From: Pyrinomonadaceae bacterium
Lineage (GTDB): Bacteria > Acidobacteriota > Blastocatellia > Pyrinomonadales > Pyrinomonadaceae
Direction: 5' to 3'
Assembly: GCA_026785925.1 (NCBI GenBank)
Contig: JAJAZE010000316.1
Coordinates: 1-41,684 of the forward strand
DNA: 41,684 bases
Shown here one piece after another: positions 866-37,115 of the stretch. The notes under the pieces were generated by a model that saw only the letters and a program-made list of their open reading frames with translations, searched no databases and had not been told where the DNA came from. Both the position numbers and the translations under genes were made by a program. The stretch's first letter is position 1, and every line of letters begins with the position of its first letter.

Positions 866-909
866 AAAAGGAAAGCGATAAGAAAATTTAACTTAATCAC
901 TTTCCTTTT
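866..909 (-). terminator. Intrinsic terminator hairpin downstream of the DUF4097 gene
   Basis: AAAAGGAAAGCGATAAG (866-882) pairs with CTTAATCACTTTCCTTTT (892-909). On the minus-strand transcript the stem is followed by TTTTTTG. The stem contains an AAG(C/T)GAT motif like the heptamer arrays elsewhere. Confidence 0.6.
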
Positions 910-932
910 GCAAAATCCGAACCGGCGACCGT

Positions 933-1784
933 TTATTTTCCGGTTTCAAACAATTTCAAATTTCCGTCGCCGACCGTGAAGCTGAACGCCGCGCCGCCGT
1001 TCCCGGCTCTGGCGATGATGGATTTCTCGGTAAATTTCGTGCGGTCGCGCGGTTTCAAATTGGTCAGCGCATTTTCGATTTGCCCGCCGCGCAAGACTTT
1101 CGCGTCAATGTGCGCGTTCAGATTGAGCGGCATTTGAACGCTCAAATCTCCGCTTGCCAACTGCATATCAACGCTCCGCCCGCGCCAACTGCGGTTCGGA
1201 ATAACGATTTCCACCAAACCTTTGCCGACGGTGGCGACGAGACTGCCGCCGACTAAATTCAAACGAACATTCGATTCGAGATAATTTATTCGCAGTGCGC
1301 CTTCGACGTTCGAGACGGTCAAATCGCCTTTGCCGCCGTCAATCGTCACATCCGAATACACCGGAACTTTGACGACGTAATCAATCCGAAAAGGCATCGC
1401 CAGCAAATTTTTCGGCAGTTTTTTCGCCACGCGCTTGACGTAATCTTTGTCGTGTGTGCCGATGCTCGTGATTCGCAAATGTCCGAAATCGTCCTCGATG
1501 ACAAAACCGTTAATTTTGGCGAGCGTCGCTAAATCCGTTTCGTTGGCGGCTTGCGTCTCGACTTCCGCCGTAATTTCCACGACGTTTTTCTGCCAGCCTT
1601 CAACCTTAATTGAACCGTTCGGCGCACCGACGATTGAAATTGTGCCGCCGACCCCGAATTCAACCGTCTCGGTTTTGTAATTCGTGCGTTTGATTAAAGG
1701 TTTGGTTTGAGCGAAAACGGTGACGGTTAAGCTCATCGAGAAAAACGCGAATAGAAAAAGAACAAATAACTTTTGATTTTTCAT
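933..1784 (-). CDS. Secreted DUF4097-like (putative adhesin / beta-helix) protein
   Basis: N-terminal signal peptide MKNQKLFVLFLFAFFSMSLTVTVFAQ. Reiterated short beta-strand segments (GDLTVSNVEGALRIN, VGGSLVATVGKGLVEIV, GDLSVQMP) are typical of DUF4097/LiaG-like proteins. Last gene of the ECF operon. Confidence 0.7.
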   Translation of the reverse strand: MKNQKLFVLFLFAFFSMSLTVTVFAQTKPLIKRTNYKTETVEFGVGGTISIVGAPNGSIKVEGWQKNVVEITAEVETQAANETDLATLAKINGFVIEDDFGHLRITSIGTHDKDYVKRVAKKLPKNLLAMPFRIDYVVKVPVYSDVTIDGGKGDLTVSNVEGALRINYLESNVRLNLVGGSLVATVGKGLVEIVIPNRSWRGRSVDMQLASGDLSVQMPLNLNAHIDAKVLRGGQIENALTNLKPRDRTKFTEKSIIARAGNGGAAFSFTVGDGNLKLFETGK

Positions 1785-1879
1785 TGTTGGACGAAATCGA
1801 ACCGAGTCTTGAAATAAAACTTACCAAAAAAATTAACAGGTTTTGAGAGAAGAGTATGGCAAACGGGCGGCGAAATAAT

Positions 1880-2656
1880 TTACCGGCGAATGAAGGAAAT
1901 GCTGCCGCGCTGGTTAGTTACTGAAATGCTCGCGCCGCCGTCGCCCGATTGTCCGACGACGCGCCGACCGTCGCTGACGAATTTCATATTTGCGCCGCCG
2001 AAATCGCCGAGCGAAATGTTGCGCGTCGAAGGCGCGGTGGCAATCAATTTGAAGGAAGAATTAAACGGAATCCGAAGATTAATGTTGCCGCGCGTCGAGG
2101 TGAAACGATAACTTCCACCGTCGGTGACGCTGCCGTCGAAGAATATATCGCCGATGACGTTTTCCGCCGCGACATTATCCGCGCTGATATTGGTCAGAGT
2201 GATGTCGCCTTCCGATGAAATATGCGCCCGAACGAGACTGCCGCGCACGCCGCTGACGTTCAAATTGCCGATTTTCGTTTCGATGTCAACAATCGCGTCA
2301 TATGGAACTTTAATCAGAAAATTGACGTTGCCGACTTCGTTTCTGCCTTGATTGTCTCTGACGAGATTGATATAAACCGTGCCGGACAAACTCTGCGGCT
2401 CGATGTTCGCCGCCGGTGCTTCGAGATACGCCGAAATATTGATTTCCGGTTTGTCCCATCCTTCGACCGTGACCGTGCCGGTGCGATTCATCAACTGCAG
2501 ACGAACATTTTTGCTCGCCGGATAAATTTTAGAGAATTTTTTCTGCGCGGAAACCTCAACCGTCGCCGCCGCTGAAGCCGCAAAGAAAAAAACTACGCTT
2601 AAAATGAGCATCGTAGTTTTATGGCGGGCGAATAAATTTTTCAAAATCCAATTCAT
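1880..2656 (-). CDS. Secreted or anchored DUF4097-like protein (paralogous architecture)
   Basis: Hydrophobic N-terminus LILSVVFFFAASAAATVEVSAQ. Repeated G-N/D-I/L-x-V/L strands (GNLNVSGVRGSLVRAHISSEGDITLTNI, RGNINLRIP). Confidence 0.7.
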   Translation of the reverse strand: MNWILKNLFARHKTTMLILSVVFFFAASAAATVEVSAQKKFSKIYPASKNVRLQLMNRTGTVTVEGWDKPEINISAYLEAPAANIEPQSLSGTVYINLVRDNQGRNEVGNVNFLIKVPYDAIVDIETKIGNLNVSGVRGSLVRAHISSEGDITLTNISADNVAAENVIGDIFFDGSVTDGGSYRFTSTRGNINLRIPFNSSFKLIATAPSTRNISLGDFGGANMKFVSDGRRVVGQSGDGGASISVTNQRGSISFIRR

Positions 2657-5996: not shown

Positions 5997-6108
5997 ATAA
6001 AATAATGCGAGTTCGGAGATGAACTGTGCAGCGAGAGGAAAATTCAACTGTTCGTTATTGACTGTGCGCTGTTGAACGAGAAAAGTTTTCCGCTGAACAG
6101 CGAATAAG

Positions 6109-6250
6109 CAGGTAATTAAAAGTTTCGCGGGATTTTGCTCATCGTTCAGAGTCCGCGCTTCAACGTGTTTTTCCGCCAGCAAAGCGCGGCGGAAAAGCAA
6201 ACTAAAGTTTGGGTTCTTTTGAGTTACAAAAGACTTTGAGAATCTACAAT
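6109..6250. repeat. Nested-palindrome (MITE-like) element, copy B, inverted relative to copy A at 17742-17888
   Basis: CAGGTAA..AAAAGTTTCGC..TCGTTCAGAGTCCGCGCTTCAACGTGTTTTTCCGCCAGCAAAGCGCGGCGGAAAAGCAAACTAAAGTTTGG aligns by eye, nearly base for base, with the reverse complement of 17742-17888. The right arm is degenerate and the boundaries are approximate. Confidence 0.65.
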
Positions 6251-6735: not shown

Positions 6736-6922
6736 GCAAAGTTTTAGCTCCCGCTCACTTTCTCCGTTCGAGTAATTTATTCAGATAGCTTATTCCGAAC
6801 TCAAGCTAAAATAAGAAAAACAAATCTTTACGCAGTTTGCCAAAGCAGGACGATAGTAACCAAAAATGTTAATATCGGACGTTTGCTCTAGAAATCTGAA
6901 ATTTTACGAGTTGATTTTAATA

Positions 6923-8752
6923 ATGATTGCTGAAAATTTAATTGGATTTGAAAATCTGCCGCAGACGATTCCGCATTTTTGTCTCGAATCGTTTCGCCGC
7001 CATAATAAACCCGACGCGCTCAGTCATAAAGTCAATGATGTGTGGGAATATCTGTCGGGCGAAATTATTATTGAAAAAATCAAATTTATCGCGCTCGGAC
7101 TCGCCGATTTAGGAGTCAAAGCGGGCGACCGCATTGCCGTTATTTCGGAAAATCGCCCGGAATGGTCGCTCACCGATTTGGCGATTTTATCGCTTCGCGC
7201 CATCAACGTCCCGATTTACACGACGCAAGCCGTCGAGCAGATTCGGTATATTCTCGAAGATTCGGGCGCGAAAATGCTGTTCGTGTCGGGCAAAAAGATT
7301 TTTCGTCACGCCGAAAACGCGATTCAATCGGTCGAACGACTGGAGAAATTGATTTTCTTCGATGCCGACGCGCTGCCCGAAAACGATAACCGCGCGATGA
7401 CTTATCAAATGCTCGAAAATCGCGGCAAAGAGTTGGAAAAAGTTGACTCGCAGATTTTTGAAACGAATCTCGCGCAGATTGAAACCGACGATTTGGCGAC
7501 GATTATTTATACTTCCGGCACGACCGGCGAACCGAAAGGCGTGATGCTGACGCACCAAAATTTCATCACGCCGATTATCGGCGTTTCCAAAGCTCTGCCG
7601 ATTAAAACGACCGACCGTTCGCTGGCGGTTTTGCCGCTCTCGCATATCTTCGAGCGCACGGTTTTTTATGTCTTGTGCGCCAACGGCGTGGCAATTCATT
7701 TCTGCTCGTCGTTCGACCAAATTGGCGCGTTTCTGGCGGATGTCAAACCGACGATTATGACCGCCGTGCCGCGTCTTTTCGAGCAGGTTTATCACAAAAT
7801 CGTCAAAAAAGGGAAAGCGGCGGGCGGTTGGCGAACTTCGCTTTTCGATTGGGCTTTGACGGTCGGACAGGATTACTGGAACGCCAAAGACAAAGGCGAA
7901 TCGTTATCTTTAGGCTTATCTTTCAAACACGCCGTCGCCGGTCGGCTCGTTTTTTCCAAATGGCGGGCGGGCGTTGGCGGCAGCATTCGCTTTTTCGTAT
8001 CGGGCGGCGCACCGCTTTCCAGAAAACTCTCGAACGCATTTTGGGCGGCGGGCATTCCGGTTTTGCAGGGTTACGGAATGACCGAAGCCTGCGTGACCTG
8101 CGTTAATCGCCCGGAAGACAGCAAAGTCGGCTCAATCGGAACGCCGTTTGAAAACATCGAAATGAAAATTGCCGAATCGGACGGCGAAATTCTGATTCGC
8201 GGTAAAAACGTGATGCGCGGCTATCTCAATAACCCGGAAGAAACCGCCAAAGTCATTGACGAAGACGGCTTTTATCACACGGGCGATGTCGGCTATGTGG
8301 ACGAAGACGGACATTTTTTTATCACCGACCGCAAAAAAGATTTATTCAAATTGTCGAACGGCAAATATATCGCGCCGCAGCAAGTCGAGAGTCTTCTAAA
8401 GCAATCGCCGCTCGTCTCGCAAGCCGTCGCCGTCGGTTCCGGGCGGAAACAAGTCGGCGCGTTGATCGTGCCGGATTGGGAAACGCTCAAACAAACTTTG
8501 AAGGAAGAAGGAATCAGTGCGGAAGGTTCGCGTGAAGAACTTTGCGAAAACCCGCACGTTATCAAAAGAGTTCAGCGCGATGCCGGCGAATTTACCCGCG
8601 AGATGAACGATTACGAGCGCGTCAAAAAAGTGTATTTATTGTCGCGCGAATTTTCGATTGATAAAGGCGAAATGACTCCGACCTTAAAAATCAAACGCGG
8701 CGTGATTGACGAAAAATACGAAGAAGCGATTGACGAAATCTGCGGCAATTAG
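6923..8752 (+). CDS. Long-chain fatty-acid--CoA ligase (AMP-dependent synthetase)
   Basis: AMP-binding motif YTSGTTGEPKGV, plus GYGMTE, TGDVGYVDEDGHFFITDRKKDLFK and PTLKIKR. Start placed at ATG 6923 (MIAENLIGF...); the longer frame from 6866 is possible. Confidence 0.9.
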   Translation: MIAENLIGFENLPQTIPHFCLESFRRHNKPDALSHKVNDVWEYLSGEIIIEKIKFIALGLADLGVKAGDRIAVISENRPEWSLTDLAILSLRAINVPIYTTQAVEQIRYILEDSGAKMLFVSGKKIFRHAENAIQSVERLEKLIFFDADALPENDNRAMTYQMLENRGKELEKVDSQIFETNLAQIETDDLATIIYTSGTTGEPKGVMLTHQNFITPIIGVSKALPIKTTDRSLAVLPLSHIFERTVFYVLCANGVAIHFCSSFDQIGAFLADVKPTIMTAVPRLFEQVYHKIVKKGKAAGGWRTSLFDWALTVGQDYWNAKDKGESLSLGLSFKHAVAGRLVFSKWRAGVGGSIRFFVSGGAPLSRKLSNAFWAAGIPVLQGYGMTEACVTCVNRPEDSKVGSIGTPFENIEMKIAESDGEILIRGKNVMRGYLNNPEETAKVIDEDGFYHTGDVGYVDEDGHFFITDRKKDLFKLSNGKYIAPQQVESLLKQSPLVSQAVAVGSGRKQVGALIVPDWETLKQTLKEEGISAEGSREELCENPHVIKRVQRDAGEFTREMNDYERVKKVYLLSREFSIDKGEMTPTLKIKRGVIDEKYEEAIDEICGN

Positions 8753-8939
8753 GTGAAAAGTGATAAGTGAGAGGTGATAAGTGATAAGTAAAAAGCCGTC
8801 TGAGATAAATGTAAATGTTTATTTCAGACGGCTTTCTCACCTATCACTTATCACTTATCACTTATCACTTATCACTTATCACTTATCACTTATCACTTAT
8901 CACTTATCACTTATCACTTATCACTTATCACTTCCCACT
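8752..8939. repeat. Inverted heptamer tandem arrays flanking a terminator hairpin
   Basis: Left arm GGTGAAA AGTGATA AGTGAGA GGTGATA AGTGATA (8752-8786). Right arm TCTCACC, then 13 perfect TATCACT (8842-8932), then TCCCACT. TATCACT is the reverse complement of AGTGATA. The array touches the stop codons of both convergent genes. Confidence 0.95.
8792..8835. terminator. Bidirectional intrinsic terminator between convergent genes
   Basis: AAAGCCGTCTGA (8792-8803) pairs with TCAGACGGCTTT (8824-8835). The stem is extended by ATAAA/TTTAT, with a T-run on the minus-strand side and TTT on the plus side. Confidence 0.7.
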
Positions 8940-9251
8940 TTAAATCTTCACTCCTTCGCTTTCGCAAAGGAGTTTGTTGAGCGTGGAAAAATCTTTGTGC
9001 TTATTACCTAAAAGTGCCTCGGCAAGTTCGTAGAGCGGAATCGGAATCTCGACTTTAGCGACTGTTTCTTCGGCTTGCGGATAATGCGCGTAAAATTCGA
9101 CCTCTGATGTGCAGAACTCGCAGACGGCAAGATGCGTTTCAATTTCCTCACGTTCTTTAGCCGACTCTCGATTGTTTTCAAAAGCCAGCAGTTCCTGCGA
9201 CGAAGGGCAAGTCGGTGTTTTACAAAAAGTTACCATTTTTAACGAAAACAT
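8940..9251 (-). CDS. Small soluble zf-HC2 (anti-sigma N-terminal domain-like) protein
   Basis: CKTPTC plus HLAVCEFC (H-x3-C-x2-C) gives four Cys and one His. No TM segment. About 98-103 aa; the start may be 9251 or 9236, and no clear SD precedes either. Confidence 0.55.
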   Translation of the reverse strand: MFSLKMVTFCKTPTCPSSQELLAFENNRESAKEREEIETHLAVCEFCTSEVEFYAHYPQAEETVAKVEIPIPLYELAEALLGNKHKDFSTLNKLLCESEGVKI

Positions 9252-9748: not shown

Positions 9749-10894
9749 ATGAATGCAACCAAAGAGCAGGAACGTCCGCCGAGACCGATTCAAAGCCGTC
9801 AGATCAAGGTCGGAAAATGGAACGAAAGTCTCAAGAAATCTGATGTCAACCAGATTTGGACGGAGCTTCACCGGATCGTTTCATCGCATCCGCTCGTGCG
9901 GGCTTCAAAACGCGCGGGGTTTCTCGTCGAAGAAGGAAAACACAACGCTTACACGGATTTAACGCAGGAGCTTTTCGTCGCGCTGCTGGGCAAAGAACGG
10001 TTCGCGCATTATATTGACACGCAGATGTCCGACCCGGAAATCGAAGCGGAAATCAGCCAGATCGAACTGACCAATATGCTGACCGCCGAGCTTCGCAAAC
10101 GCTATCCCGAATCGTATCGGCTGGCGCGGCGCGTCTCGACTTTGATTCAGACCGGCAAAATCTTCAAGCGGTTCGATAATATCAATAATCCCGACGTGCA
10201 TCGGCGTTTAGCCGATAGGCTTTACGGTTTGGCTGACTGGAAAAACGAGAAATCGCGGCGCAACGTCCAGGAAATGGAAGAGCGCGTCAAAACCGTTTCG
10301 TTTCAGAGCCGTGATACGCGAATGGTCGGCTGCACGGGCGACGCGCAAATCGTCATCAGCAACGTCGAACTGGAAAAATTGATCGTCCGCGTTTTCAAAG
10401 CGATTGATTCGCCGGTTGACGTGCGCTCGCTGCGCTCGTTCGTGATGTCGCGGCTGCCGATTATGGATATTTATTTGGTTCCGGTCGGCGGCGCAACCGA
10501 CGGCGGCGAAGAAGATAAAATGGAATTCGATTATCCAGACACGCGCGAGAATCCCGAACAAAATGTTCTGCGGCGCGAGGCGGAGATCACGGCGGCGGAT
10601 TTCGTCGAAAATTTCCTGGGTGAATTAAACAAATCCGTGCGTGGTAAAGCAAAACAATATAATCGGATGATCAGCGTTTTGTGGCATTGCTACTTGATTT
10701 CCGACAGCGGAACGCAGCTTGAAGTAGCGGAAATGCTCGGCGTTTCCGATTCTTTGGTTTCGGATTACCGCAAACGCATCGAGTCGAATTTACAGCGGCT
10801 TTCCTTTAACGGCGTGAACGAAGCCAGACATTTTGAAAAAGCTCTGCGCCACACCGTGCGCGGCATTATTGCGGTCGAAAATGTCACCGCCTAA
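9749..10894 (+). CDS. Atypical sigma-70-family-like protein with a long insertion between region-2-like and region-4-like segments
   Basis: Region-2-like DLTQELFVALLGKERFAHYI ... LTNMLTAELRKR near residue 70-115. C-terminal HTH resembling region 4.2 (TQLEVAEMLGVSDSLVSDYRKRIESNLQRL). About 200 aa of unassigned sequence lies between them. Assignment is by eye only. Confidence 0.5.
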   Translation: MNATKEQERPPRPIQSRQIKVGKWNESLKKSDVNQIWTELHRIVSSHPLVRASKRAGFLVEEGKHNAYTDLTQELFVALLGKERFAHYIDTQMSDPEIEAEISQIELTNMLTAELRKRYPESYRLARRVSTLIQTGKIFKRFDNINNPDVHRRLADRLYGLADWKNEKSRRNVQEMEERVKTVSFQSRDTRMVGCTGDAQIVISNVELEKLIVRVFKAIDSPVDVRSLRSFVMSRLPIMDIYLVPVGGATDGGEEDKMEFDYPDTRENPEQNVLRREAEITAADFVENFLGELNKSVRGKAKQYNRMISVLWHCYLISDSGTQLEVAEMLGVSDSLVSDYRKRIESNLQRLSFNGVNEARHFEKALRHTVRGIIAVENVTA

Positions 10895-10980
10895 AAGTGA
10901 GAAGTGAGAAGTGAGAAATGAGAAATAGAACAGTTTTTCACTTCTCACTTCTCACTTCTCACTTCTCACTTCTCACTTTT
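10895..10980. repeat. Inverted heptamer tandem arrays forming a long hairpin
   Basis: AGTGAGA x3 (10896-10916), then AATGAGA and AATAGAA; a short loop; then TTTCACT and TCTCACT x5 (10943-10977). It starts 1 nt after the stop codon of the sigma-like gene. Confidence 0.95.
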
Positions 10981-11093
10981 CTTGCTCTCGCCCGAAAATG
11001 ATAAAATGTCATTAGCGAACTTTTCACAAGAATCAATTAGAATTACCGCTAACTATAAAAATCTTCCGCCGTTGATGTTGCGAAAGTTTATTG

Positions 11094-13915: not shown

Positions 13916-15526
13916 TTGGAAGAAACTTCAATCAAAACATCTTCATTAAAAATGCAGAGCGTGTGGCTTTTGTTTGCAAAGGTCGTCGGCTTCGGCTTTA
14001 GTTTCCTGCTGCCTTTGTTGATTGTCCGGTATCTAAGTCAAGAGCAAGTCGGGGTCTACCGGCAGGTTTTTCTCGTCATCATCAACGCCAATATCATCTT
14101 GATGCTCGGCTTCGGAATGAGCGCGTATTATTTTCTCGCCCGTGAAACCGTGCGCCGTCCGGCGGTGATTATCAACACGCTGCTTTTTAATTTCACGGTC
14201 GGCGGCATTGCCTGTCTGACGCTTTATTTTTATCCGCAGCTTATCGGCAACATCTTTCACAGCGCGGAAATCACCCGGCTCGCGCCGAAAATCGGCGTAG
14301 TCATCTGGCTCTGGATATTTTCCTCTTATTTGGAAATCGTGCCGGTCGCCAACCGCGAACCGCGAGCGGCGACGGCGTTTATCATTCTCGCGCAGATGAC
14401 GAAAACCGCTTTGATGATTTCGGCAGTCATCATTTTTACGACCGTCGAAGCCTTTGTCTATGCGGCGATGGCGCAGGCGGCAATTCAAACAATCGTGCTG
14501 CTCGTTTATCTCAATTCACGGTTTCCGAAATTTTGGACGGCATTCGACGCTTCGTTTTTCCGCGAACAGCTTTTCTACGCTCTGCCGTTTGGTTTGGCGA
14601 GCTTGCTCTGGACTCTGCAAACCGACATTCACAATTATTTCGTCGGTTATCAATTCGGTTCAGCCGAATTTGCGATTTACGCCATCGGATGTTTTGAACT
14701 GCCTTTAATTGCGATGCTCGCCGAATCGGTGACATCGGTTTTGATTCCGCGAATGAGCGAATTACAGTCACGCGGCGACAAACCAGGAATAATTCGTCTG
14801 ACGGCGCGGATAATGCAAAAGCTGGCGTTTTTTTATTTCCCGATTTACATCTTTTTGATGATTACGGCGCAAACTTTTATCACGACGCTCTTTACGCGCG
14901 ATTATCTGGCGAGTGTGCCGGTTTTTCTGATTAACATCACACTTCTGCCGATGTATATTCTCGTCACCGACCCGATTGTTCGCGCCTACAAGGAACTCGG
15001 CAGACTGCTGCTGACCCTGCGCGTTTTAATCATCGTCGCGCTGATTCCCGCGCTGTATTTCGGCATTCAAAATTTCGATTTGCGCGGGATGATTGCGATT
15101 GTCGTCGTGACGGCTTTCGTTGACCGTTTGGTTTCGACCGCCATCGTTTTAAAAAAATTAAACGCCGGCAGGCGCGATTTATTTTTGCTTAAGAACATCG
15201 GCAAAATCGCCGCCGCGAGTCTGCTGGCGGGATTTTTCACCTACCTGTTTTATTGGGGATTGAGCGAACAAATTTTCTGGTGGGGCGAACATTTGCCTCC
15301 GATGATTTTCAGTGCGCCGCGCACGAGCATCGTTGATTTTATCGCGGGCAATTTGGTTTTAGGCAGTTGTGCGCTGGTTTTTGCGCCGATTTATCTTTTC
15401 GCCGTGAACTTTTTCGGGGTGATCGAGAACGACGAAAAAGAGAAAATAAAATCCTTTATTCGTCGTCTGCTGCCGTTTGTTAAAAAAGTTACAATCCAAA
15501 ATCCAAAATCTGAAGTCCAAAATTGA
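13916..15526 (+). CDS. Polysaccharide flippase (Wzx / MOP superfamily)
   Basis: About 12-14 TM helices across 536 aa, in a polysaccharide-locus context. The C-terminal 11 codons are encoded by a heptamer array. Confidence 0.8.
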   Translation: MEETSIKTSSLKMQSVWLLFAKVVGFGFSFLLPLLIVRYLSQEQVGVYRQVFLVIINANIILMLGFGMSAYYFLARETVRRPAVIINTLLFNFTVGGIACLTLYFYPQLIGNIFHSAEITRLAPKIGVVIWLWIFSSYLEIVPVANREPRAATAFIILAQMTKTALMISAVIIFTTVEAFVYAAMAQAAIQTIVLLVYLNSRFPKFWTAFDASFFREQLFYALPFGLASLLWTLQTDIHNYFVGYQFGSAEFAIYAIGCFELPLIAMLAESVTSVLIPRMSELQSRGDKPGIIRLTARIMQKLAFFYFPIYIFLMITAQTFITTLFTRDYLASVPVFLINITLLPMYILVTDPIVRAYKELGRLLLTLRVLIIVALIPALYFGIQNFDLRGMIAIVVVTAFVDRLVSTAIVLKKLNAGRRDLFLLKNIGKIAAASLLAGFFTYLFYWGLSEQIFWWGEHLPPMIFSAPRTSIVDFIAGNLVLGSCALVFAPIYLFAVNFFGVIENDEKEKIKSFIRRLLPFVKKVTIQNPKSEVQN

Positions 15527-17888: not shown

Positions 17889-17957
17889 CATATAAATAAA
17901 AGTTTAGGCGAAAACTCAAAAATAAAACTGTTTATGTTAGTGGCAACAGTAGAAAAG

Positions 17958-20817: not shown

Positions 20818-21060
20818 AAGCTGTTTGGAAACTCGAAAATTATCGTTGTTGGTCATCGAAGATGACCAACATTATAGCCCAGCGAGAATCGCTGGGTTGG
20901 CGTTCGGTCAGCGTCCCGACGCTGAAAGCGTCGAACAATCAATCTGATGTTGCTCGCTTTCAGCGAGCGTTGAATTGTTTTCCGTCAGACCAGCGATTCT
21001 CGCTGGGCTATAATGTTGGTCGTCTTTGGCGACTAAACCCAAGTTTCCAAACAGCTTCTA
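20815..21060. repeat. 246-bp long-palindrome element (MITE-like or structured RNA), family distinct from A/B
   Basis: Outer IR TAGAAGCTGTTTGGAAACT (20815-20833) / AGTTTCCAAACAGCTTCTA (21042-21060). Inner 30-nt IR 20866-20895 / 20990-21019. Each arm also holds local hairpins (CCCAGCGAGAATCGCTGGG; CGACGCTGAAAGCGTCG / GCTCGCTTTCAGCGAGC). TA dinucleotides sit at both ends. Confidence 0.85.
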
Positions 21061-21140
21061 AGAAAATTTGGGAGTAACTTTTATTACAATTTTAGCTTCT
21101 CCAGCGTCGCTTGCAATGAAAACAATAAAGTGGTGAAAAA

Positions 21141-21213
21141 TCAGAAACCAGAAAGCAGAAGTCAGCATCGCTTTCAGATTAGAATTTCGGCTTCTGGATT
21201 CTGACTTCTACTT
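21141..21213 (-). terminator. Heptamer-array hairpin, likely terminator of the MATE gene
   Basis: TCAGAAA CCAGAAA GCAGAAG TCAG (21141-21165) faces TTCTGGA TTCTGAC TTCTACT (21192-21212). The 5-bp CAGAA/TTCTG helices are separated by 2x2 mismatches. The minus-strand transcript continues with TTTTTC. It abuts the MATE stop codon (21214). Confidence 0.7.
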
Positions 21214-22689
21214 TTAGACAACTTTCAGCTTCCACTTTCCGCGTCTGAAAAGAAACGCCGAAACGATTGCCAGCACCGAAAATGCCACGGTTATCGCCCA
21301 GAAAACGCCGTCCGGTCCAAGTCCGAAATGATACGCCAGCAAGTAGGCGAGCGGAATCTCGAACATCCAGAAAATAAAAAGATTCAAATAAGTCGGTGTC
21401 CAAGTGTCGCCCGCGCCGTTAAATGACGATTCCAAAACCATCCCGAAAGCGTAGAACACGAAACCGTAGGCGACGATGTGCAAACAGTTTGTGCCGTAAG
21501 CTAAAACTTCCGCTTCGTCGGTGAAAAATCCGACGATTCGATTTGAGAAAAATAAAAATATCAAACTGACCGCGCCGAGAACCGCCGCATTGACGAACGC
21601 CGCTTTCCACACTGACGCTTCGGCGCGTTCCGGTTTGCCCGCGCCCAGGTTTTGCCCGACGAGCGTTGCCGCCGCGTTGCTCAAACCAATCGCCGGCAGC
21701 AGCGCGAACATAATCACGCGCAGACCAATGACGTAACCGGCAATCGCTCCGCTGCCGAATCCGGCGACGACGCGAACTAACGCGCTCCAACTTGCCGTCG
21801 CAATCGTGAACTGCAAAACGGCGGGCGCGGCGATTTTAACCAAACTCGACATAATTTCCGAATCATACCGCCAATACTCTTTGCGAATCGTGATGCGCCC
21901 GCCCGGACGAAACAGCCAATATGCCGCGAACAGAACGCCGACCCCGCGCCCGATGGTCGTGCCGATTGCCGCGCCGGTCACGCCGAGTTTCGGAAAAATC
22001 CAATTATCAATCAACCACTGCGGCGCGCCGATTCCCAAAAAAGCGAAAATATCCGCGCCCATAATAAAACACGGCGCGAGAACGATGTTCAAAAGATTTG
22101 CCAGAAACAAAACGCGCATCGCAATCGCCGCGTCGCCCGCGCCGCGAAAAATCGCGTTCAGCAGAAACAGAAAAACGATGACCGCGTTGCCGCCGAGCAT
22201 AATCCTGGTGAACGTCGTGCCTTCAGCGATCACCTGCGGTTCCGCGCCGAGCAGCCGCAGAAAAACGGGCGCGAAAACGATGCCGACGACGCTCATCACC
22301 AGCGAAACAATCACACCCAAATAGATGGCGTGTGCCGCCGTTCGCGCCGCGCCTTCCTGGTCTTTTTCGCCGGTTCGTCGGGCGACTGTTGCCGTCGCGC
22401 CGATGCTCAAACCGATGGCGACGGCGTAGACAATCGCCAGCATTGATTCGGTCAAACCGACAATCGCCACCGAATCCGCGCCCAGATGCCCGACGAAATA
22501 AATGTCTACGATGGCGAAAACGCTCTCCATAAACATTTCCAAAATCATCGGAACGCTCAATAAAAAAATCGCTAAACCGATTGAGCCGGTCGTAAAGTCG
22601 CGCTCGGAACCGGCGACGGCTTCGCGCAGAATTGACCAGAAAGAATTATTCTCCGTCTGCCCGGCAGAATTATCCGTATTTATAGACAT
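21214..22689 (-). CDS. MATE family efflux transporter
   Basis: 491 aa and 12 TM helices. The N-terminal SIGLAIFLLSVPMILEMFMESVFAIVDIYFVGHLG is typical of NorM/DinF-type MATE proteins. Confidence 0.9.
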   Translation of the reverse strand: MSINTDNSAGQTENNSFWSILREAVAGSERDFTTGSIGLAIFLLSVPMILEMFMESVFAIVDIYFVGHLGADSVAIVGLTESMLAIVYAVAIGLSIGATATVARRTGEKDQEGAARTAAHAIYLGVIVSLVMSVVGIVFAPVFLRLLGAEPQVIAEGTTFTRIMLGGNAVIVFLFLLNAIFRGAGDAAIAMRVLFLANLLNIVLAPCFIMGADIFAFLGIGAPQWLIDNWIFPKLGVTGAAIGTTIGRGVGVLFAAYWLFRPGGRITIRKEYWRYDSEIMSSLVKIAAPAVLQFTIATASWSALVRVVAGFGSGAIAGYVIGLRVIMFALLPAIGLSNAAATLVGQNLGAGKPERAEASVWKAAFVNAAVLGAVSLIFLFFSNRIVGFFTDEAEVLAYGTNCLHIVAYGFVFYAFGMVLESSFNGAGDTWTPTYLNLFIFWMFEIPLAYLLAYHFGLGPDGVFWAITVAFSVLAIVSAFLFRRGKWKLKVV

Positions 22690-25768: not shown

Positions 25769-26038
25769 CTAGTTTTTTGTAACTTCCTGATTCATCTTTT
25801 CCTGTAGCCAAAGATTAAGCAATGTTTCCGCCGACACGCCGCGCCGTTCGGCAATCGTGTGAAGTTTCGACGAAAGCGAAGTTTCCACCGCGTAATAAAA
25901 AACGTCGGACTGTAAATCAACTGCAAACTCAACTTCTTCGGTTTTCTCCCAAATTTCATCGGCATCGTGCAAATCCCAATACTCGCCGATTTCCTTGTAT
26001 GATTTTGCTTCTGAAATTGAACTTTTATTTTCTTGCAT
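25769..26038 (-). CDS. brnA: BrnA/CopG-like type II antitoxin
   Basis: 89 aa. EIGEYWDLHDADEIWEKTEEVEF, followed by a C-terminal ribbon-helix-helix-like segment (LSSKLHTIAERRGVSAETLLNLWLQEK). Overlaps the upstream DUF497 gene by 14 nt. Confidence 0.65.
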   Translation of the reverse strand: MQENKSSISEAKSYKEIGEYWDLHDADEIWEKTEEVEFAVDLQSDVFYYAVETSLSSKLHTIAERRGVSAETLLNLWLQEKMNQEVTKN

Positions 26039-26309
26039 ATCGTTTTCTCTCCGCGCCGGTCATATCTCGCGCCGACAAAATCAATGCGCGATGGTCTTCT
26101 TTATGAACAAAGTAACAAGCCAAATAGCGTCCGCCGTCGGTTTGACCGAATGCCGCATAAACATTTTCGTCTTTTCGATGCCCTTTTTCAATAAAACGAA
26201 AGCGCGGATTGTTGAGAAAAATTTCGCGGACTTCTCCGGTTTCGACCGAGTGCTTCCAAATTAGTTTCTGAACTATTTCCTCCAGCCAGACAAAACCCGT
26301 AATTTTCAT
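26025..26309 (-). CDS. brnT: BrnT-like (DUF497) ribonuclease toxin
   Basis: 94 aa. FVWLEEIVQKLIWKHSVETGEVREIF ... ALILSARDMTGAERKRYARK matches the DUF497 pattern (F-W-D...KHGV..EE..EVF ... IISAR.at..Er..Y). Its ATG directly abuts the clpS stop codon. Confidence 0.75.
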   Translation of the reverse strand: MKITGFVWLEEIVQKLIWKHSVETGEVREIFLNNPRFRFIEKGHRKDENVYAAFGQTDGGRYLACYFVHKEDHRALILSARDMTGAERKRYARK

Positions 26310-26673: not shown

Positions 26674-26739
26674 AACAGGATGGACAGGATATTCAGGATG
26701 AAATCAAAAAATTATCCTGCTCATCCTGTCCATCCTGTT
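26674..26739. repeat. Inverted 9-nt tandem arrays forming a hairpin
   Basis: CAGGAT recurs at 26676, 26685 and 26694 (period 9). ATCCTG recurs at 26714, 26723 and 26732 (period 9). AACAGGATGGACAGGAT (26674-26690) is perfectly complementary to ATCCTGTCCATCCTGTT (26723-26739). It lies between the gdh-like stop and the clpS start. Confidence 0.85.
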
Positions 26740-26751: not shown

Positions 26752-27870
26752 CTAGATTTTACTCACTTCAAAATACGCCTTGATCGCTTTGTATTTCCCG
26801 GCGTTATTGAGAATGTCGAAGGCTTCGGCGAAATTCTCCAAGCCGTTGACTTTATGTGTCATTATTTTTCCGAGCCAGCCCGCGAACGTCGCTTCGCATA
26901 ATGCTAAATCCTTCACGCCCATCTCAAAATGTTCGCGGTTGGCGTTGACCGTGCCGACCATCGCTCGATTTCCCAAAACGAACATTTGATTGATTTTGTC
27001 GGACGGCACAGCATCGGTTTTGCGCTCGCCGCCGGTCACGCTGGCTAAAATCAGAATGCCGTTTTCGTTTAAACTCTGCATCGCGTCAAAGACGATTGGC
27101 GAAAAACCCGTGCATTCAAAAACAAGATCGTATTCGCCGTATTTCTTCGTCGAATCGGCAACCGTGATTTCGGCAGTCGAATCGTAAGTCGCGCCGATTT
27201 CTTCGAGCAGTTCGGCGTTAAAATAACCGTCCCGCACGTCGCGCCCGAAGCCGTGAACTTCGCAGCCGCGCATTCGCAAAGCCATCGCCGTTAAAATTCC
27301 GACGCTCCCAACTCCTAAAACCGCCGCCGTTTTCGGCTGCCAGATGTCGAGGCGTTTTTGAATGTCTTCGGCTTGCTTCAAACCTTTTTCGATAATCGAA
27401 AGCGGTTCGAGCAGCACGGCGATCTCGGCAATCGCGGGCGGAATTTTGACAAGAAAATCTGCGCTTTCAACGTAAAATTCCGCCATATAACCGTGCAGCC
27501 GCGAGATGCCGCGTTCCCAATATTCCGCGTCGGTCGTAAAATCCTGCTGACCAATCGTGTCATAAATGCTGTGTCCGAATGGTCGCCGAACGGTCGCCAC
27601 GACGAAATCGCCCGCTTTCAGTTCTCTAAAATTTTCACCAACTTCGACGACGCGCCCGAAATTTTCGTGTCCGAGAATCAAAAAATCAAAACCGTCGGGC
27701 GCAACACCGTATTCGCCGTTGTTGATTTCCCGATCCGTGCCGCACGCGCCGACGCGCAGAACTTCGACTAAAACGCCGCGCCCGTCTTTGATTTCTTCGA
27801 TTTTCGGTTTGTCCGTCTCGACCAGATGAACGCTGTTCGGTTGTTTCGGTGTAACGGCGATTGCCTTCAT
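26752..27870 (-). CDS. Zinc-dependent MDR-family dehydrogenase, glucose 1-dehydrogenase-like
   Basis: VGACGTDRE, GHENFGRVVEVG, and Rossmann motif LGVGSVG. Overall resemblance to archaeal-type glucose dehydrogenases, judged from memory only. Confidence 0.75.
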   Translation of the reverse strand: MKAIAVTPKQPNSVHLVETDKPKIEEIKDGRGVLVEVLRVGACGTDREINNGEYGVAPDGFDFLILGHENFGRVVEVGENFRELKAGDFVVATVRRPFGHSIYDTIGQQDFTTDAEYWERGISRLHGYMAEFYVESADFLVKIPPAIAEIAVLLEPLSIIEKGLKQAEDIQKRLDIWQPKTAAVLGVGSVGILTAMALRMRGCEVHGFGRDVRDGYFNAELLEEIGATYDSTAEITVADSTKKYGEYDLVFECTGFSPIVFDAMQSLNENGILILASVTGGERKTDAVPSDKINQMFVLGNRAMVGTVNANREHFEMGVKDLALCEATFAGWLGKIMTHKVNGLENFAEAFDILNNAGKYKAIKAYFEVSKI

Positions 27871-30190: not shown

Positions 30191-30200
30191 TTGCTTGACC

Positions 30201-30250
30201 AAATTAAAAACGAGGTGATTTCTTAATTGAAATCACCTCGTTTTTAATTT
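30201..30250. terminator. Bidirectional terminator (perfect 22-bp inverted repeat)
   Basis: AAATTAAAAACGAGGTGATTTC / loop TTAATT / GAAATCACCTCGTTTTTAATT T. T-runs on both strands. Lies between the convergent katE and mqn genes. Confidence 0.85.
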
Positions 30251-30266
30251 GTAACGGATTTATAGA

Positions 30267-33551: not shown

Positions 33552-35123
33552 ATGTCATTAGAAACGGATTTTATCGTGATCGGTAGCGGAGTCGCCGGGC
33601 TGCGCGCTTCGATTGAACTGGCGAAAAGCGGTGCGCGGGTTTCGGTCTTAACCAAAGATAAGGCGCAGGAGTCGAACACCGAATACGCGCAGGGCGGCGT
33701 GGCGGTCGTTCTCTCGGATGATGACAATGCCGAACTACACGAAGAAGACACGCTTTACGCGGGCGCGGGTTTGTGCGATGTCGAAGCAGTCGAAACGCTG
33801 GTCGCCGACGGCACGAAATATATCAAACAACTGATCGAATGGGGAATCGAATTTGACCGCGAAGGCGGCAAACTCGCCTTCACGCAGGAAGCGGCGCATT
33901 CGCGGCGGCGAATTCTGCACGCGCACGGCGATTCGACCGGCAAGGAAATCGTCCGCGCTTTGATTGCCCGCGCCCGCCAGGAAAAAAACATCGTTTTGAT
34001 GCCGTTTGCCAATACCGAAAGTTTGATTGTAAATGACGGCAGATGCGTCGGTGTAAGATTTTTAGACCCGATTCTTCGTGCGCCGCGTGAGATTTTCGCT
34101 AAGGCGGTAATTTTATGCACGGGCGGCGCGGGGCAATTATTTCTGCACACGACGAATCCGCCGGTGGCGACGGGCGACGGAATGGCAATGGCGTATTTCG
34201 CGGGCGCGGAAATGGCGGATATGGAATTTATCCAATTTCATCCGACGGCATTAAATTTGGAAAACGCGCCCAGATTTCTATTAAGCGAGGCGATGCGAGG
34301 CGAAGGCGGAATTTTGCGGAACGCGCAGGGCGAACGGTTTATGTCGCGCTATGACGATTTGCTCGAACTCGCGCCGCGTGATGTCGTCAGCCGTTCGATT
34401 GTTGCCGAAATGCGCCGGACGGGAACGCGCACGGTTTTCTTGGATATGACCGCGCACGACGAAAAGTTTCTTAAAGAACGATTTCCGAAAATTTATGAGA
34501 CGTGCAAATTTTACGATTTAAACGTCGCTAAAGATTTGCTGCCCGTCTCGCCCGCGTCGCATTATTGTATGGGCGGCGTTCGGACGGATTTGCACGGCAG
34601 AACGACTCTCAAAGGACTTTATGCGGCGGGCGAAGTCGCCTGCACGGGCGTTCACGGCGCGAATCGTCTGGCTTCAAATTCTTTATTAGAAGGCTTGGTT
34701 TTCGGTGCGCGGTCGGGCGAAGCCGCGATAAAAGACAATTACGAATTACGAATTACAAATTACGAATCGCCACCCGAAGACCAAAGACCGAAGACCAAAA
34801 ACCAATCTTCCGAAATTTCGACGGCGGTGAAAAAGCGCGTCAAGCGTGTGATGTGGGAGCGCGTCGGGATTTTGCGCGATAGAGATTCTTTACAAAGAGC
34901 GTTAAAAGAATTCGCGCAAATCGAACAGTCGAATCTCGGCACGTCGTCGCGCAATTTCGTCACGCTCGCCAAACTCGTCGCAGCCTCGGCGTTATGGCGC
35001 GAGGAATCACGCGGCGGACATTTCCGCAACGATTTTCCCGAACGTGACGACGTTAATTTTGACAAACATTCGATTCAAAAAATCGATGCGGAAATCTCTT
35101 CGAGCGAGAAAATAAACTTTTAA
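33552..35123 (+). CDS. nadB: L-aspartate oxidase
   Basis: FAD motif VIGSGVAGL, plus QGGVA, HPTAL, RGEGG, GEVACTGVHGANRLASNSLLEGLVFG, ESRGGHFR. Confidence 0.93.
   Translation: MSLETDFIVIGSGVAGLRASIELAKSGARVSVLTKDKAQESNTEYAQGGVAVVLSDDDNAELHEEDTLYAGAGLCDVEAVETLVADGTKYIKQLIEWGIEFDREGGKLAFTQEAAHSRRRILHAHGDSTGKEIVRALIARARQEKNIVLMPFANTESLIVNDGRCVGVRFLDPILRAPREIFAKAVILCTGGAGQLFLHTTNPPVATGDGMAMAYFAGAEMADMEFIQFHPTALNLENAPRFLLSEAMRGEGGILRNAQGERFMSRYDDLLELAPRDVVSRSIVAEMRRTGTRTVFLDMTAHDEKFLKERFPKIYETCKFYDLNVAKDLLPVSPASHYCMGGVRTDLHGRTTLKGLYAAGEVACTGVHGANRLASNSLLEGLVFGARSGEAAIKDNYELRITNYESPPEDQRPKTKNQSSEISTAVKKRVKRVMWERVGILRDRDSLQRALKEFAQIEQSNLGTSSRNFVTLAKLVAASALWREESRGGHFRNDFPERDDVNFDKHSIQKIDAEISSSEKINF
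34738..34807 (+). repeat. Two abutting heptamer tandem arrays inside the nadB reading frame
   Basis: AATTACG AATTACG AATTACA AATTACG AATCGCC ACCCGAA GACCAAA GACCGAA GACCAAA AACCAAT. Translated in frame as NYELRITNYESPPEDQRPKTKNQ. Confidence 0.85.
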
Positions 35124-35183
35124 GAAAGTGGTAAGTGCTAAGTGAAAAACAAAAACTTGCCACTTGCCACTTACCACTTTTCT
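35124..35183. terminator. Heptamer-array hairpin, bidirectional terminator between nadB and the TolC-like gene
   Basis: GAAAGTG GTAAGTG CTAAGTG (35124-35144) faces CTTGCCA CTTGCCA CTTACCA CTTTTCT (35156-35183). A 13-bp plus a 5-bp helix. Spans exactly from stop codon to stop codon. Confidence 0.8.
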
Positions 35184-37078
35184 CATTTTCTCAGACGCGC
35201 TTCGACGTTGTTGGCTTTCAGTGAATTTCCGGTTGCTCTCTGCAAATCGGCAATTGATTTATTCAGTTCGGTTTGGGCGCGAAGCTCACTGCTTCTGGCG
35301 ACGGTTAAAGCCGTCTGGCGTTCGAGAACTTTGTAAATGTCCGTCTGTCCTTCATCGAATTTGCGCTGTTCGGATTCGTATTGTTTGACCGAATTTTCTC
35401 GCGCAATCGCCGCACTTCTTAACCTTGCTTCGGCAGTGCGGACAAATTGCAGGGCGTTTCGAACATCAACCTGAATGTTTTGCTCGATTTGCTCGCGCTG
35501 CGTTTTTATTTTTTCGCCTTCGACCAGCGATTTGCCGAGTTGCGCTTTGGTGGTTTTGTCGCCGAACAGCGGCAGATTGAACTGTACGCCGACGCGGTAA
35601 GTCGGATAACGATTTGCCAGCAGATTGCCCAACGCCGCGCCGTAACCGCCGATTAAATTGTCGGGCAGGCGCGGCGCGGGCGTTGCCGGAATGATCGGAA
35701 TCGGCGGCAGAGACGGATTCACCTGCGCGTAAAGCGTATTGACGCGCCCGATCACCGTGTTGAGCGTCTGCGTCGTATTCGTCGAACCGATTGGATTAAC
35801 CGCGCCCGAATTAAAAGTTCCCGCCGCGCCGGTCAGCGTGTAATTGGCGATCAAATCAATTTGCGGCTTCGTCTGCTCGCGGAAAAATTTCTGGTCAATC
35901 GCGTTAATGTCTTTCTGCGTTCGATTCAGTTCGAGTTCGGGACGATTGGCGAGCGCGGCTTGCAGAGCTTCGTTTAAAGTCGTGTTCGGCGCATCCAAAT
36001 CAACCGGGTCAACCGGCGTAATCGCTTCGCTCCAGAGCGCGTCGTCTTTGTTTTGGGCAATCAAATTTTTAAGAGTGTTTTCCGCTTGCCCGACCGTGTT
36101 GAGCGCGTCATAGACGGCTTGCTCGAAATTGGCGACCTGCGTTTCGGCGGCGACAATATCAATCGGCGCAAGTTGTCCTTCTTCGACCAGACGGCGATTG
36201 TGTTCGAGTTGGTCTTTTGCGTCTTTGACCGAATCGCGCTGCACCTGCAAATTCCGCAGCGCGTAAGTCAAATCCCAATAAGCCCTCTGGACGCTGGCAA
36301 TAACTTCAATCGAACGCTGCCGAAACTGCGTGTCGGTCAAACTCAAGTTGCGCTTGGCGATTTCAATCGTGCGGCGATTTTGGTCAAACTTGCGTCCACG
36401 TAAAAGCGGCTGCGTGAATTGAAACCGCAGATTCTGCGTATAAGTCGGATTAACCGCCGAAAAAACATTGTTCGTCGCGCCGCGTGAACTGTCGGTCTGC
36501 ACGGCAAATCTGCCGCCGGTTTGCCGGATATTGCCGTCCAAACCGACGTTGCCGACCAAGCCCGAAGTCGTCAAAGAGCCGTCGGAGCCGCCGCCGAAAA
36601 AGCTGAAGACCGGAACTTTAGCGTGTTCGTAATAAGTTTGTCCGGTAAAATGCGGTTCGTAAAAACCGCGCGCCGCCTGCAAATCAAACTCCGCGCCGCG
36701 CACGTTCTGGCGCGTCACTTCGATGTCTTTGTTGTTTTCCAAAGCGAGCGTAATCGCTTCGCGCAAAGTCAGTGGTCGCTGTGCCATCATATCCACGCCG
36801 ACGCGACCGAGTTCGGGCAGCGTTTTATCGTTCGATTGATAATTCGGCGCGATTGCCGGAACGCCGCTCAGATTTTCCGGCTGAACCTGTTGCGCGTCGG
36901 TCGGCTTGTTTTCGACGGTCGGCAAATTGTCTTTGTTCTCAATCATCGGTGTCGGCGTTGCGGTCGGCGCGACCACGACTGTCTGCGCCCGCGCTTCGCC
37001 GGAAATCAAAAAAGCAGATAAAACCAGACTCAAACCGGACAGTATGAAATTAAATTTGAAAGATAATTGCTCATTCAT
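35183..37078 (-). CDS. TolC-family outer-membrane efflux protein with an extended N-terminal linker
   Basis: Signal peptide FNFILSGLSLVLSAFLISGEARAQ. Two OEP repeats (LTLREAITLALENNKDIE...; ...LNEALQAALANRPELE...). Start placed at ATG 37076-37078. Confidence 0.85.
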   Translation of the reverse strand: MNEQLSFKFNFILSGLSLVLSAFLISGEARAQTVVVAPTATPTPMIENKDNLPTVENKPTDAQQVQPENLSGVPAIAPNYQSNDKTLPELGRVGVDMMAQRPLTLREAITLALENNKDIEVTRQNVRGAEFDLQAARGFYEPHFTGQTYYEHAKVPVFSFFGGGSDGSLTTSGLVGNVGLDGNIRQTGGRFAVQTDSSRGATNNVFSAVNPTYTQNLRFQFTQPLLRGRKFDQNRRTIEIAKRNLSLTDTQFRQRSIEVIASVQRAYWDLTYALRNLQVQRDSVKDAKDQLEHNRRLVEEGQLAPIDIVAAETQVANFEQAVYDALNTVGQAENTLKNLIAQNKDDALWSEAITPVDPVDLDAPNTTLNEALQAALANRPELELNRTQKDINAIDQKFFREQTKPQIDLIANYTLTGAAGTFNSGAVNPIGSTNTTQTLNTVIGRVNTLYAQVNPSLPPIPIIPATPAPRLPDNLIGGYGAALGNLLANRYPTYRVGVQFNLPLFGDKTTKAQLGKSLVEGEKIKTQREQIEQNIQVDVRNALQFVRTAEARLRSAAIARENSVKQYESEQRKFDEGQTDIYKVLERQTALTVARSSELRAQTELNKSIADLQRATGNSLKANNVEARLRK

Positions 37079-37097
37079 AATACTTTCCAAAAACCGA

Positions 37098-37115
37098 TAA
37101 GTAAGCACTTACTTA
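37098..37115. repeat. Short AAGTAAG/CTTACTT palindrome upstream of the TolC-like gene
   Basis: TAAGTAAG-CA-CTTACTTA. It shares the AAGT core of the 8.8, 10.9 and 35.1 kb arrays. Confidence 0.5.

Follow-up and report, generated by a model that had tools for sequence, protein, structure and literature searches.

Gene-end hairpins built from inverted heptamer arrays in a Pyrinomonadaceae bacterium, with units that change from locus to locus

Introduction

In several intergenic spacers of a soil bacterium of the Pyrinomonadaceae (Acidobacteriota), a tandem array of short units is followed by a loop and a second tandem array of the reverse-complement unit, so that a periodic hairpin stands directly at the end of a gene. 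The question raised by this locus is what kind of repeat these sites are, how their arrays arise, and whether they serve the gene ends at which they lie. The window analyzed here is the whole stretch of 41,684 nt on the forward strand of contig JAJAZE010000316.1 (GCA_026785925.1), and its genes are of housekeeping and envelope types, including an acyl-CoA ligase, nadB, clpS/clpA, a MATE transporter, a TolC-like protein, and polysaccharide synthesis genes. A first-pass annotation, made from the letters alone, judged the host not to be a cyanobacterium; this is correct, as the closest genomes are all metagenome-assembled genomes (MAGs) of Pyrinomonadaceae (Acidobacteriota, Blastocatellia), with protein identities of at most 91-92%.

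Heptameric repeats of the short tandemly repeated repetitive (STRR) type have been known since 1990, and an over-representation of heptamers in several phyla was found in 2007. To our knowledge, neither the 7-nt step nor any function of heptamer repeats has been explained. The best reading of the window sites is that they are heptameric simple-sequence repeats (SSRs), STRR-like, arranged as a pair of arrays in inverted orientation; both the DNA and any transcript across an array pair would fold into a long stem with periodic arms.

Materials and Methods

Arrays of the window were detected with Tandem Repeats Finder (TRF) and an inverted-repeat search. RNA folding energies were compared with those of 200 dinucleotide shuffles per site and are given with their z-scores. 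The comparison set comprised 160 related loci with 10-kb flanks, or 154 sequences (2.06 Mb) once duplicates were removed, with 153 relatives represented; compared sequences carry L numbers. Among these relatives, TRF arrays of at least 2.8 copies were considered, and an array was called inverted when a partner array of the reverse-complement unit lay no more than 200 nt away. Dinucleotide-preserving shuffles of 221 kb of the relatives' intergenic DNA served as the control.

Results

Anatomy of the Five Hairpins

The five main inverted tandem arrays proposed at first pass are real: they were recovered by TRF and the inverted-repeat search, and their folds have z-scores from -3.1 to -12.9.

Site 1, first arm: 8753..8795, no strand, degenerate heptamers GTGAAAA GTGATAA GTGAGAG GTGATAA GTGATAA
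Site 1, inner hairpin: 8792..8835, non-periodic, AAAGCCGTCTGAGATAAAT...GTTTATTTCAGACGGCTTT, with an A-run on one side and a T-run on the other
Site 1, second arm: 8837..8939, TCACTTA x13.9 by TRF at 8837-8933, 98% matches, score 187
Site 1, fold: 8753-8939, -77.4 kcal/mol, z -12.9
Site 2: 10895..10980, + strand, AAGTGAG x4, loop, TCACTTC x6, then TTTTCTT; fold of 10895-10980, -48.8 kcal/mol, z -8.7
Site 3: 21138..21209, CAGAAAC CAGAAAG CAGAAGT, loop, TTCTGGA TTCTGAC TTCT, the weakest member; fold of 21138-21209, -22.2 kcal/mol, z -3.1 (weakest)
Site 4: 35124..35182, GAAAGTGGT AAGTGCT AAGTGAA, loop, CTTGCCA CTTGCCA CTTACCA CTTTTC; fold of 35124-35182, -26.0 kcal/mol, z -6.0
Site 5: 26674..26739, - strand, a 9-nt version with ACAGGATGG-type units and their complement, TRF period 9 at 26714-26738; fold of 26674-26739, -45.8 kcal/mol, z -10.2

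Site 1 is a composite, in which an A-tract/GC-stem/T-tract hairpin (8792-8835) that looks like an ordinary bidirectional terminator is nested between heptamer arms. The first arm (TRF period 7 at 8753-8789, GTGATAA x5.3, with inverted-repeat partners found) follows directly on the TAG codon that ends the acyl-CoA ligase gene (6866-8752), and the second arm reaches the stop codon (8940-8942) of a convergent 103-aa gene. The arms are unequal, at about 5 vs 14 units, and since the outer pairing can take several registers, the centroid structure retains the inner hairpin only. At 8796-8804 and 8824-8832, this inner hairpin holds GCCGTCTGA and TCAGACGGC, a 9-mer identical to the core of the Neisseria DNA uptake sequence; we judged the identity of GCCGTCTGA to be chance, the gene content and the relatives being acidobacterial.

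Site 2 begins one base past the TAA stop at 10892-10894. TRF reported period-7 arrays at 10895-10930 and 10938-10978 (TCACTTC x5.9, 100% matches), and the inverted-repeat search paired 10893-10924 with 10949-10980 at 97% complementarity. About 20 nt 3' of this site (about 10996-11010) lies an extended -10-like motif, GAAAATG(N)TAAAATG (GAAAATGNTAAAATG), which is kept in many relatives upstream of an O-antigen-ligase-like gene. The array at site 3 (TRF period 7, x3.3, at 21138-21160) is near the stop codon (21214-21216) of the MATE transporter gene. Site 4, with TRF period-7 arrays at 35126-35144 and 35155-35179, takes up all of the DNA from the nadB stop (35121-35123) to that of the convergent TolC-like gene (35183-35185). 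Site 5 is located 13 nt past the stop codon of a dehydrogenase gene (26752-26754), with clpS starting 44 nt further downstream, and the site is identical in a short-read contig (L163) that is probably from the same sequencing project. Directly downstream of clpS, at 26025-26309 on the - strand, we noted a BrnT-toxin-like small gene followed by an 89-aa gene (Pfam matches, L163).

The claimed adjacency of the arrays to stop codons holds at every coordinate, with stops ending at 8752, 10894, and 35123 and minus-strand stops starting at 8940, 21214, and 35183. The unit had been described as different at each site; it does change across loci and across orthologous spacers (see below), but sites 1, 2, and 4 belong, as variants, to a single AAGTGNN family, sharing an AAGTG core, the ends GAAA(A)GTG...CACTTT(T)C, and 3' arms that form one repeat family. 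Loops, flanks, and arm lengths differ among all five sites, none of which has target-site duplications. The window units (AAGTGAT, AAGTGAG, CAGAAAC, AAGTGGT, and CAGGATGGA) all lack a G3 run, and T-rich tails are seen at sites 2 and 4 and at the inner hairpin of site 1. As shuffling of the 221 kb of intergenic DNA yields 4.6 period-7 arrays, about 0.1 would be expected by chance in the ~5 kb of spacers in the window, compared to the seven observed.

Abundance and Position in Related Genomes

In the relatives' intergenic DNA, we observed 124 period-7 arrays against a shuffle mean of 4.6, followed by period 8 (27 against 3) and period 9 (16 against 2), the units of which resemble heptamers with a lengthened A or T run (e.g., AAAAAGTG). 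Periods 5 (6 against 3) and 6 (7 against 4.4) were not enriched over the shuffles. A total of 151 period-7 arrays lie in non-coding DNA vs 72 in DNA called coding, which makes up 87% of the sequence, and ~60% of the latter are at over-extended open reading frame (ORF) starts or within the last 60 nt of an ORF. The arrays are also present in complete chromosomes assembled from long reads (e.g., L016 from OZ244585.1) and are therefore no short-read artefact. A Logan short-read contig with the exact 381-aa protein (L164) stops within the 5' arm of site 2 (1215-1244), an example of how periodic stems break short-read assemblies; heptamer stems also blur ORF starts and ends in MAG annotation.

The inverted arrays are placed at the 3' ends of genes. 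They occur in 24 of 180 convergent and 54 of 647 co-directional spacers, compared to 2 of 234 divergent spacers (Fisher p = 4e-7), so that the enrichment at 3' ends proposed as a check at first pass is borne out in the relatives (78/827 gaps with a gene 3' end vs 2/234). Stems between convergent genes usually reach the stop codon on either side. In co-directional spacers, stem onset has a median of ~4 nt past the stop (within -9 to +7 nt in 30 of 54), and the next start codon is a median of ~22 nt away with wide scatter; some hairpins fill the spacer from stop to start (L024 18188, L026 18350, L068 16870, and L035 13933). Nearly a third of the period-7 arrays in co-directional spacers (31/95) are orphans without a partner arm.

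Two further features of the relatives bear on the origin of the arrays. Their units are diverse, with 72 distinct canonical heptamers among 118 site-units; clustering by single-mismatch links joined nearly all of them, which is expected by chance for 72 units with rotations and strands and is thus uninformative. Their distribution is also patchy, as one array or more was found in 41 of the 66 loci that span 15 kb or more, and the other 25 carry none over the same syntenic genes.

Unit Replacement at Fixed Junctions

In the relatives, the spacer that corresponds to site 1 and follows the ligase gene contains units of GTGATAA, AAGGCAA, AAAGTGA, GGTTAGT, GATTCCA, CACAGAGG, GATTTCA, and others, depending on the genome, and every unit series has its complementary partner arm opposite. 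A second series of genome-to-genome unit change is seen in the spacer orthologous to site 2. The first-pass view that periodicity plus inverted symmetry is the conserved property thus holds across the loci of the window and even more strongly at orthologous spacers. By automatic classification, the site 1 spacer in 111 relatives comprised 18 periodic hairpins, 14 partnerless arrays, and 33 plain hairpins, ten of the latter with A or T tracts, and clear canonical terminators were noted in L019, L023, and L051. Because array-free relatives bear plain hairpins in this spacer, some of them A/T-tracted, the periodic hairpins occupy a terminator position. We also considered derivation of the arrays from canonical terminators, which was rejected given that a strong inner hairpin is present in just 12 of the 44 long loops; site 1 is atypical in this respect.

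Two genomes that are ~90% identical, L026 and L035, display several forms of this turnover. One site differs in copy number only, with 5 vs 6 units. In another spacer, L026 has a GGTTTCT hairpin where L035 has only 23 unrelated bases, and the final bases of the gene already contain a portion of the 5'-arm unit of this hairpin (GAAACCGGTTTCTAG). At one junction, a GATCTTT hairpin in L026 (18350-18425) is matched in L035 (about 17700) by GGGATGA x4, which runs from stop codon to start codon with the start ATG and a Shine-Dalgarno (SD)-like GGGA inside the unit. Among near-identical strains (97.5-99.9% identity), the heptamer sites were identical in 4 of 4 cases; copy-number polymorphism among strains, suggested as a check, was not seen in these four cases.

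Variant units are mirrored between the arms, as the native order was more stable than a unit-permuted 3' arm at 28 vs 9 sites (Wilcoxon p = 0.003). Together with the different, locally seeded arrays at the same junction in ~90% identical genomes, this supports the local generating mechanism that had been offered as one option. The companion claim, that the sites are not copies of one mobile element, needs qualification: the sites are not one mobile element with terminal inverted repeats (TIRs), but some families in the relatives are dispersed copies with flank and loop. L049 and L121 each have two copies of a CACAGAGR element with ~45 identical nt that include the non-repeat flank AAATTCAC and the loop ATTTTTAATAA, and L024 has two sites with a TTGATAA element. 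We therefore favor local generation in 7-nt steps and palindromic maintenance, with some copying between sites.

Arm Polarity

The two arms are not equivalent in composition. In 78 hairpins, the first arm had G>C in 62 vs 10 (p = 3e-10), was purine-rich in 54 vs 22, and had A>T in 49 vs 27; the base composition of the 5' arm was A.34, T.30, G.26, and C.105. The first arm of a palindrome is the same on both strands, so that a G-rich 5' arm holds no information on gene orientation, and the polarity is instead a 5'-to-3' one common to both strands. Stop triplets, which are free of C and more frequent in the first arm, explain part of this polarity only, as arms without a stop triplet still had G>C in 14 vs 5. 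Orphan arrays showed no strand preference, and sense and antisense RNA folds were equal in stability and in the number of G:U pairs.

Other Repeats of the Window

Two small sites had been grouped with the arrays at first pass (866-909 and 37098-37115), and both proved to be plain hairpins, the first non-periodic and the second of 8 bp (z -2.9) at a gene 5' end, where its membership in the class is not convincing. The first of these is terminator-like and has the AAAGTG sequence type seen in the arrays, yet it contains no tandem array. The remaining features are as follows.

866..912, - strand: non-periodic gene-end hairpin AAAAGGAAAGTGAT...ATCGCTTTCCTTTT, then a T-run (T6), z -5.9
15493..15523, + strand: orphan array, AATCCAA x4.4 by TRF, without a partner arm
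34737-34805: heptamer arrays AATTACG x4.4 and AAGACCA x4.1 within nadB
20812-21050: ~230-nt non-periodic palindrome beside site 3
17737-17893: palindrome with 68-nt arms (81%), upstream of a heparinase-like gene
6103-6171: 69-nt half copy of the preceding palindrome, 75% identical
30200-30251: perfect 23-bp non-periodic hairpin, z -12
41024-41060, - strand: canonical intrinsic terminator GCCTTGTCAGG...CTTGACAAGGCTTTTTG

The orphan array at 15493-15523 forms the last codons of a flippase-like gene (stop 15524-15526) and ends 4 nt before the start of an asnB-like gene, for which we assigned the ATG at 15528 rather than the TTG at 15477 given by the ORF finder. Within nadB (33552-35123), the two arrays at 34737-34805 (69 nt) are in frame and encode the linker from the flavin adenine dinucleotide (FAD)-binding domain to the C-terminal domain (…NYELRITNYESPPEDQRPKTKNQ…). 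Heptamer slippage extends into tolerant coding DNA as well, with the nadB linker as a case in point.

The palindrome beside site 3, in a convergent spacer, has 54-nt core arms (20849-20902 and 20983-21036) that are 85% complementary, plus outer pairing, and may be an element like a miniature inverted-repeat transposable element (MITE). The palindrome at 17737-17893 and its half copy at 6103-6171 are a dispersed MITE-like family, separate from the heptamer hairpins, with a common core CGTTCAGAGTCC that occurs three times compared to 0.17 expected; the ORF that begins at 17709 is probably called too long, running across this palindrome. Lastly, the hairpin at 30200-30251, located between convergent genes and bearing A- and T-rich shoulders, looks like an ordinary bidirectional terminator, and the canonical terminator at 41024-41060 indicates that the organism uses ordinary terminators too.

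Discussion

Relation to Described Repeats

The first-pass annotation knew of no description of locus-specific inverted heptamer terminators, a novelty that is overstated given the inverted GGGAATC arrays of Xanthomonas (PMC4692102) and the STRR hairpins of cyanobacteria (PMC2670836). The Xanthomonas arrays (Rehm et al. 2015, PMC4692102) are the closest match. They occur at 70-75 sites per genome as two facing arrays on opposite strands capable of forming a stem-loop, adjoin stop codons, are depleted from divergent spacers and coding DNA, have the G-rich strand just past or overlapping stops and the C-rich strand just before ORF starts, and vary in length and sequence among close species. The arrays described here resemble them in their tandem heptamers, inverted pairing, placement of facing arrays near ORF ends (78/827 vs 2/234), G-rich first arm (62 vs 10), and rapid variation. 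In Xanthomonas, however, one consensus unit with G3 tracts is used genome-wide and is read as G-quadruplex-forming, whereas here dozens of A/T-rich units, mostly without G3, are seen in a different phylum with a different genomic G+C. Units containing G3 are few in the relatives (GGGATGA and GGGGAAAA) with no single consensus unit, and as G3 runs are mostly absent, G-quadruplex formation is unlikely.

The resemblance to cyanobacterial STRR lies in 7-bp intergenic tandem units, several families per genome, and some hairpins between adjacent genes, such as those between hupS and hupL, for which transcript stabilization or translational coupling was proposed (PMC2670836; heptamer families listed in PMC2408588). 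By TRF, head-to-tail 7-nt copies were found at four of the five window sites. The STRR comprise few genome-wide families (STRR1-3) in heterocystous cyanobacteria, compared to 72 canonical units in 118 site-units here in Acidobacteriota, and the stop-codon abutment and G-first polarity seen here are absent from the STRR descriptions in PMC2670836 and PMC2408588. Inverted pairing is reported to be rare in the GGGGAYT arrays of Nostoc (PMC4692102). The TAACTGA repeats of Beggiatoaceae, Cyanobacteria, and Bacteroidetes (MacGregor 2015, PMC4679880) are likewise intergenic heptamer arrays by ORF boundaries with a patchy phylogeny; unlike the present arrays, they have a single unit, are almost always direct (one inverted among 170 sets), and are located just upstream of start codons.

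Non-heptameric systems offer further partial parallels. With intrinsic bidirectional terminators, the sites share a stable stem-loop directly past stop codons, often between convergent genes, with an A-rich first and T-rich second arm (49 vs 27); they differ in having A/T-rich periodic stems of 20-45 bp rather than GC-rich stems of 5-12 bp, in mostly lacking a U-tract, and in lying, in some cases, within apparent operons. Like repetitive extragenic palindromes and bacterial interspersed mosaic elements (REP/BIME) and MITEs, they are extragenic palindromes at gene ends, some of them dispersed families in the relatives, with possible roles in termination and mRNA stabilization; unlike these, they have arms built of tandem units in varying copy number, with no GTAG/CGTC tag or common consensus in the window. 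No TIRs, target-site duplications, or conserved interior characteristic of MITEs were seen at the five window sites. Our literature search found no paper on such arrays in Acidobacteria. What is new here is the phylum, the unit diversity, the lack of G-quadruplex potential, and the stop-touching stems; the architecture is not new in kind.

Origin and Possible Function

Arrays would arise in place through slippage that multiplies a short segment in steps of 7 nt, either beside a stop codon or at a gene-end hairpin already there. Complementarity of the arms could then be upheld by hairpin-templated (fold-back) copying, selection for pairing, or the two together, and drift and homogenization of units would give fast unit turnover with a constant architecture. 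Both the slippage and templating steps, and any role in termination or stabilization, we infer from these sequence patterns. Persistence at gene 3' ends suggests that stable stems there are useful, or at least harmless.

Whether the locally generated arrays are kept at gene 3' ends as functional hairpins is, in our judgment, evenly balanced. Such hairpins may mark transcript ends, stopping or pausing RNA polymerase from either direction and shielding 3' ends from exonucleases, and those that run from stop to start may couple or insulate neighboring cistrons. A periodic stem could zip in any register. RNA:DNA hybrids are more stable with purine-rich RNA than with pyrimidine-rich RNA. A purine- and G-first polarity places the pyrimidine-rich arm at the 3' side, where the weak RNA:DNA hybrid might allow transcript release without a U-tract; this model predicts the observed polarity. 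A terminator-like position is supported by the plain hairpins of relatives, the hybrid structure of site 1, and the extended -10-like motif past site 2.

Several observations weigh against this functional reading. At least four T in the 8 nt past the stem were seen at only 11 of 54 sites, and most sites are therefore not canonical intrinsic terminators. Several hairpins fill the stop-to-start spacer in apparent operons, where a full terminator would silence the downstream gene, and coupling or differential stability is more plausible for these than full termination. On both counts, the label of terminators used at first pass is not supported. A consensus terminator scan gave no excess in the window, and Rfam gave no match at gathering thresholds across the whole window. 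With equal sense and antisense folds, nothing points to selection on RNA over DNA. The lack of arrays in 25 of 66 loci argues that periodicity is dispensable and may perhaps reflect a lineage-specific mutational bias, and depletion from divergent spacers could stem from promoter constraint rather than a benefit at 3' ends. As to origin, some families, such as CACAGAGR, look copied rather than locally made, and high slippage rates are not demonstrated, with 4 of 4 sites identical at 97.5-99.9% identity.

Some of these points suit a neutral explanation, in which a lineage-specific bias in replication or repair towards 7-nt slippage, and towards fold-back copying at palindromes, inflates hairpins and short repeats in unconstrained DNA, giving functionless arrays that are tolerated only downstream of genes. 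Patchiness among syntenic relatives (41/66 with arrays), whole hairpins gained, lost, or swapped at ~90% identity, and common orphan arrays without strand preference (31/95, co-directional) all fit such a by-product, as do the arrays at 34737-34805 (nadB linker) and 15493-15523 (flippase-like tail), where coding DNA is tolerant. Slippage of the polymerase has also been named, tentatively, as the source of a heptamer excess among bacterial SSRs of several phyla (Mrazek 2007, as cited in PMC4692102). However, a neutral, strand-symmetric process does not predict the G/purine-first polarity (62 vs 10), nor does the by-product explanation predict the mirrored order of variant units or the tenfold per-spacer gap between 3'-end and divergent spacers, and the arrays stand where relatives have terminator-like hairpins. 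We consider this explanation possible, if on balance improbable.

Mobile or copied palindromic families (REP/BIME-like or MITE-like) that insert at gene ends, with arms heptameric from the start or becoming so later, are an unlikely source of the sites as a whole. Copies of the CACAGAGR element in L049 and L121, flank and loop included, the TTGATAA element at two L024 sites, the common ends GAAA(A)GTG...CACTTT(T)C of the three AAGTG window sites, and MITE-like palindromes in the same genomes are what such families would leave. The window sites, however, have no common loop or flank and no target-site duplications, and their arm lengths differ; 72 distinct canonical heptamers in 118 site-units, and unrelated, locally derived arrays at the same junction in close relatives, are also not what insertion would give. 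No transposase was found among the scanned window genes (Pfam/NCBIfam, ~two thirds of the main ORFs, with about a dozen ORFs outside the scan).

Arrays of sites bound by a small RNA or a sequence-specific protein, such as the post-transcriptional regulator proposed for TAACTGA repeats, or a role mainly in translational coupling of adjacent cistrons, would fit the hairpins spanning exactly stop to start, the SD-like motif and start codon within L035 GGGATGA x4, and the TAACTGA repeats just upstream of start codons in Beggiatoaceae (PMC4679880), but are very unlikely overall, as the units are far too diverse for a single binding specificity, roughly one site in three is flanked by convergent genes and so has no cistron downstream, and the next start is a median of ~22 nt off with wide scatter.

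Implications

The arrays add a third, unrelated phylum in which heptamer hairpins show Xanthomonas-like placement and G-first polarity. That their units mostly lack G3 runs weakens the quadruplex explanation and leaves the hairpin and its periodicity as the common denominator; it is the geometry and polarity of the hairpin that the phyla have in common, rather than the sequence of the unit or its quadruplex potential. A more far-reaching version of the functional reading, which we rate as quite doubtful, is that these hairpins are a distinct class of bidirectional, U-tract-independent terminator with periodic, purine-first stems that zip in any register behind RNA polymerase, generated via a lineage-specific trans-acting factor that sets the 7-nt step. 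If true, this factor (a polymerase, helicase, or nuclease variant) would be traceable by phylogenetic profiling, given the patchy syntenic genomes, and it would explain why bacterial intergenic repeats are so often heptamers. The Pyrinomonadaceae provide a natural experiment in this regard, with close syntenic genomes that carry or lack arrays and with replacement at fixed junctions, which makes the generator of the arrays testable by comparative genomics.

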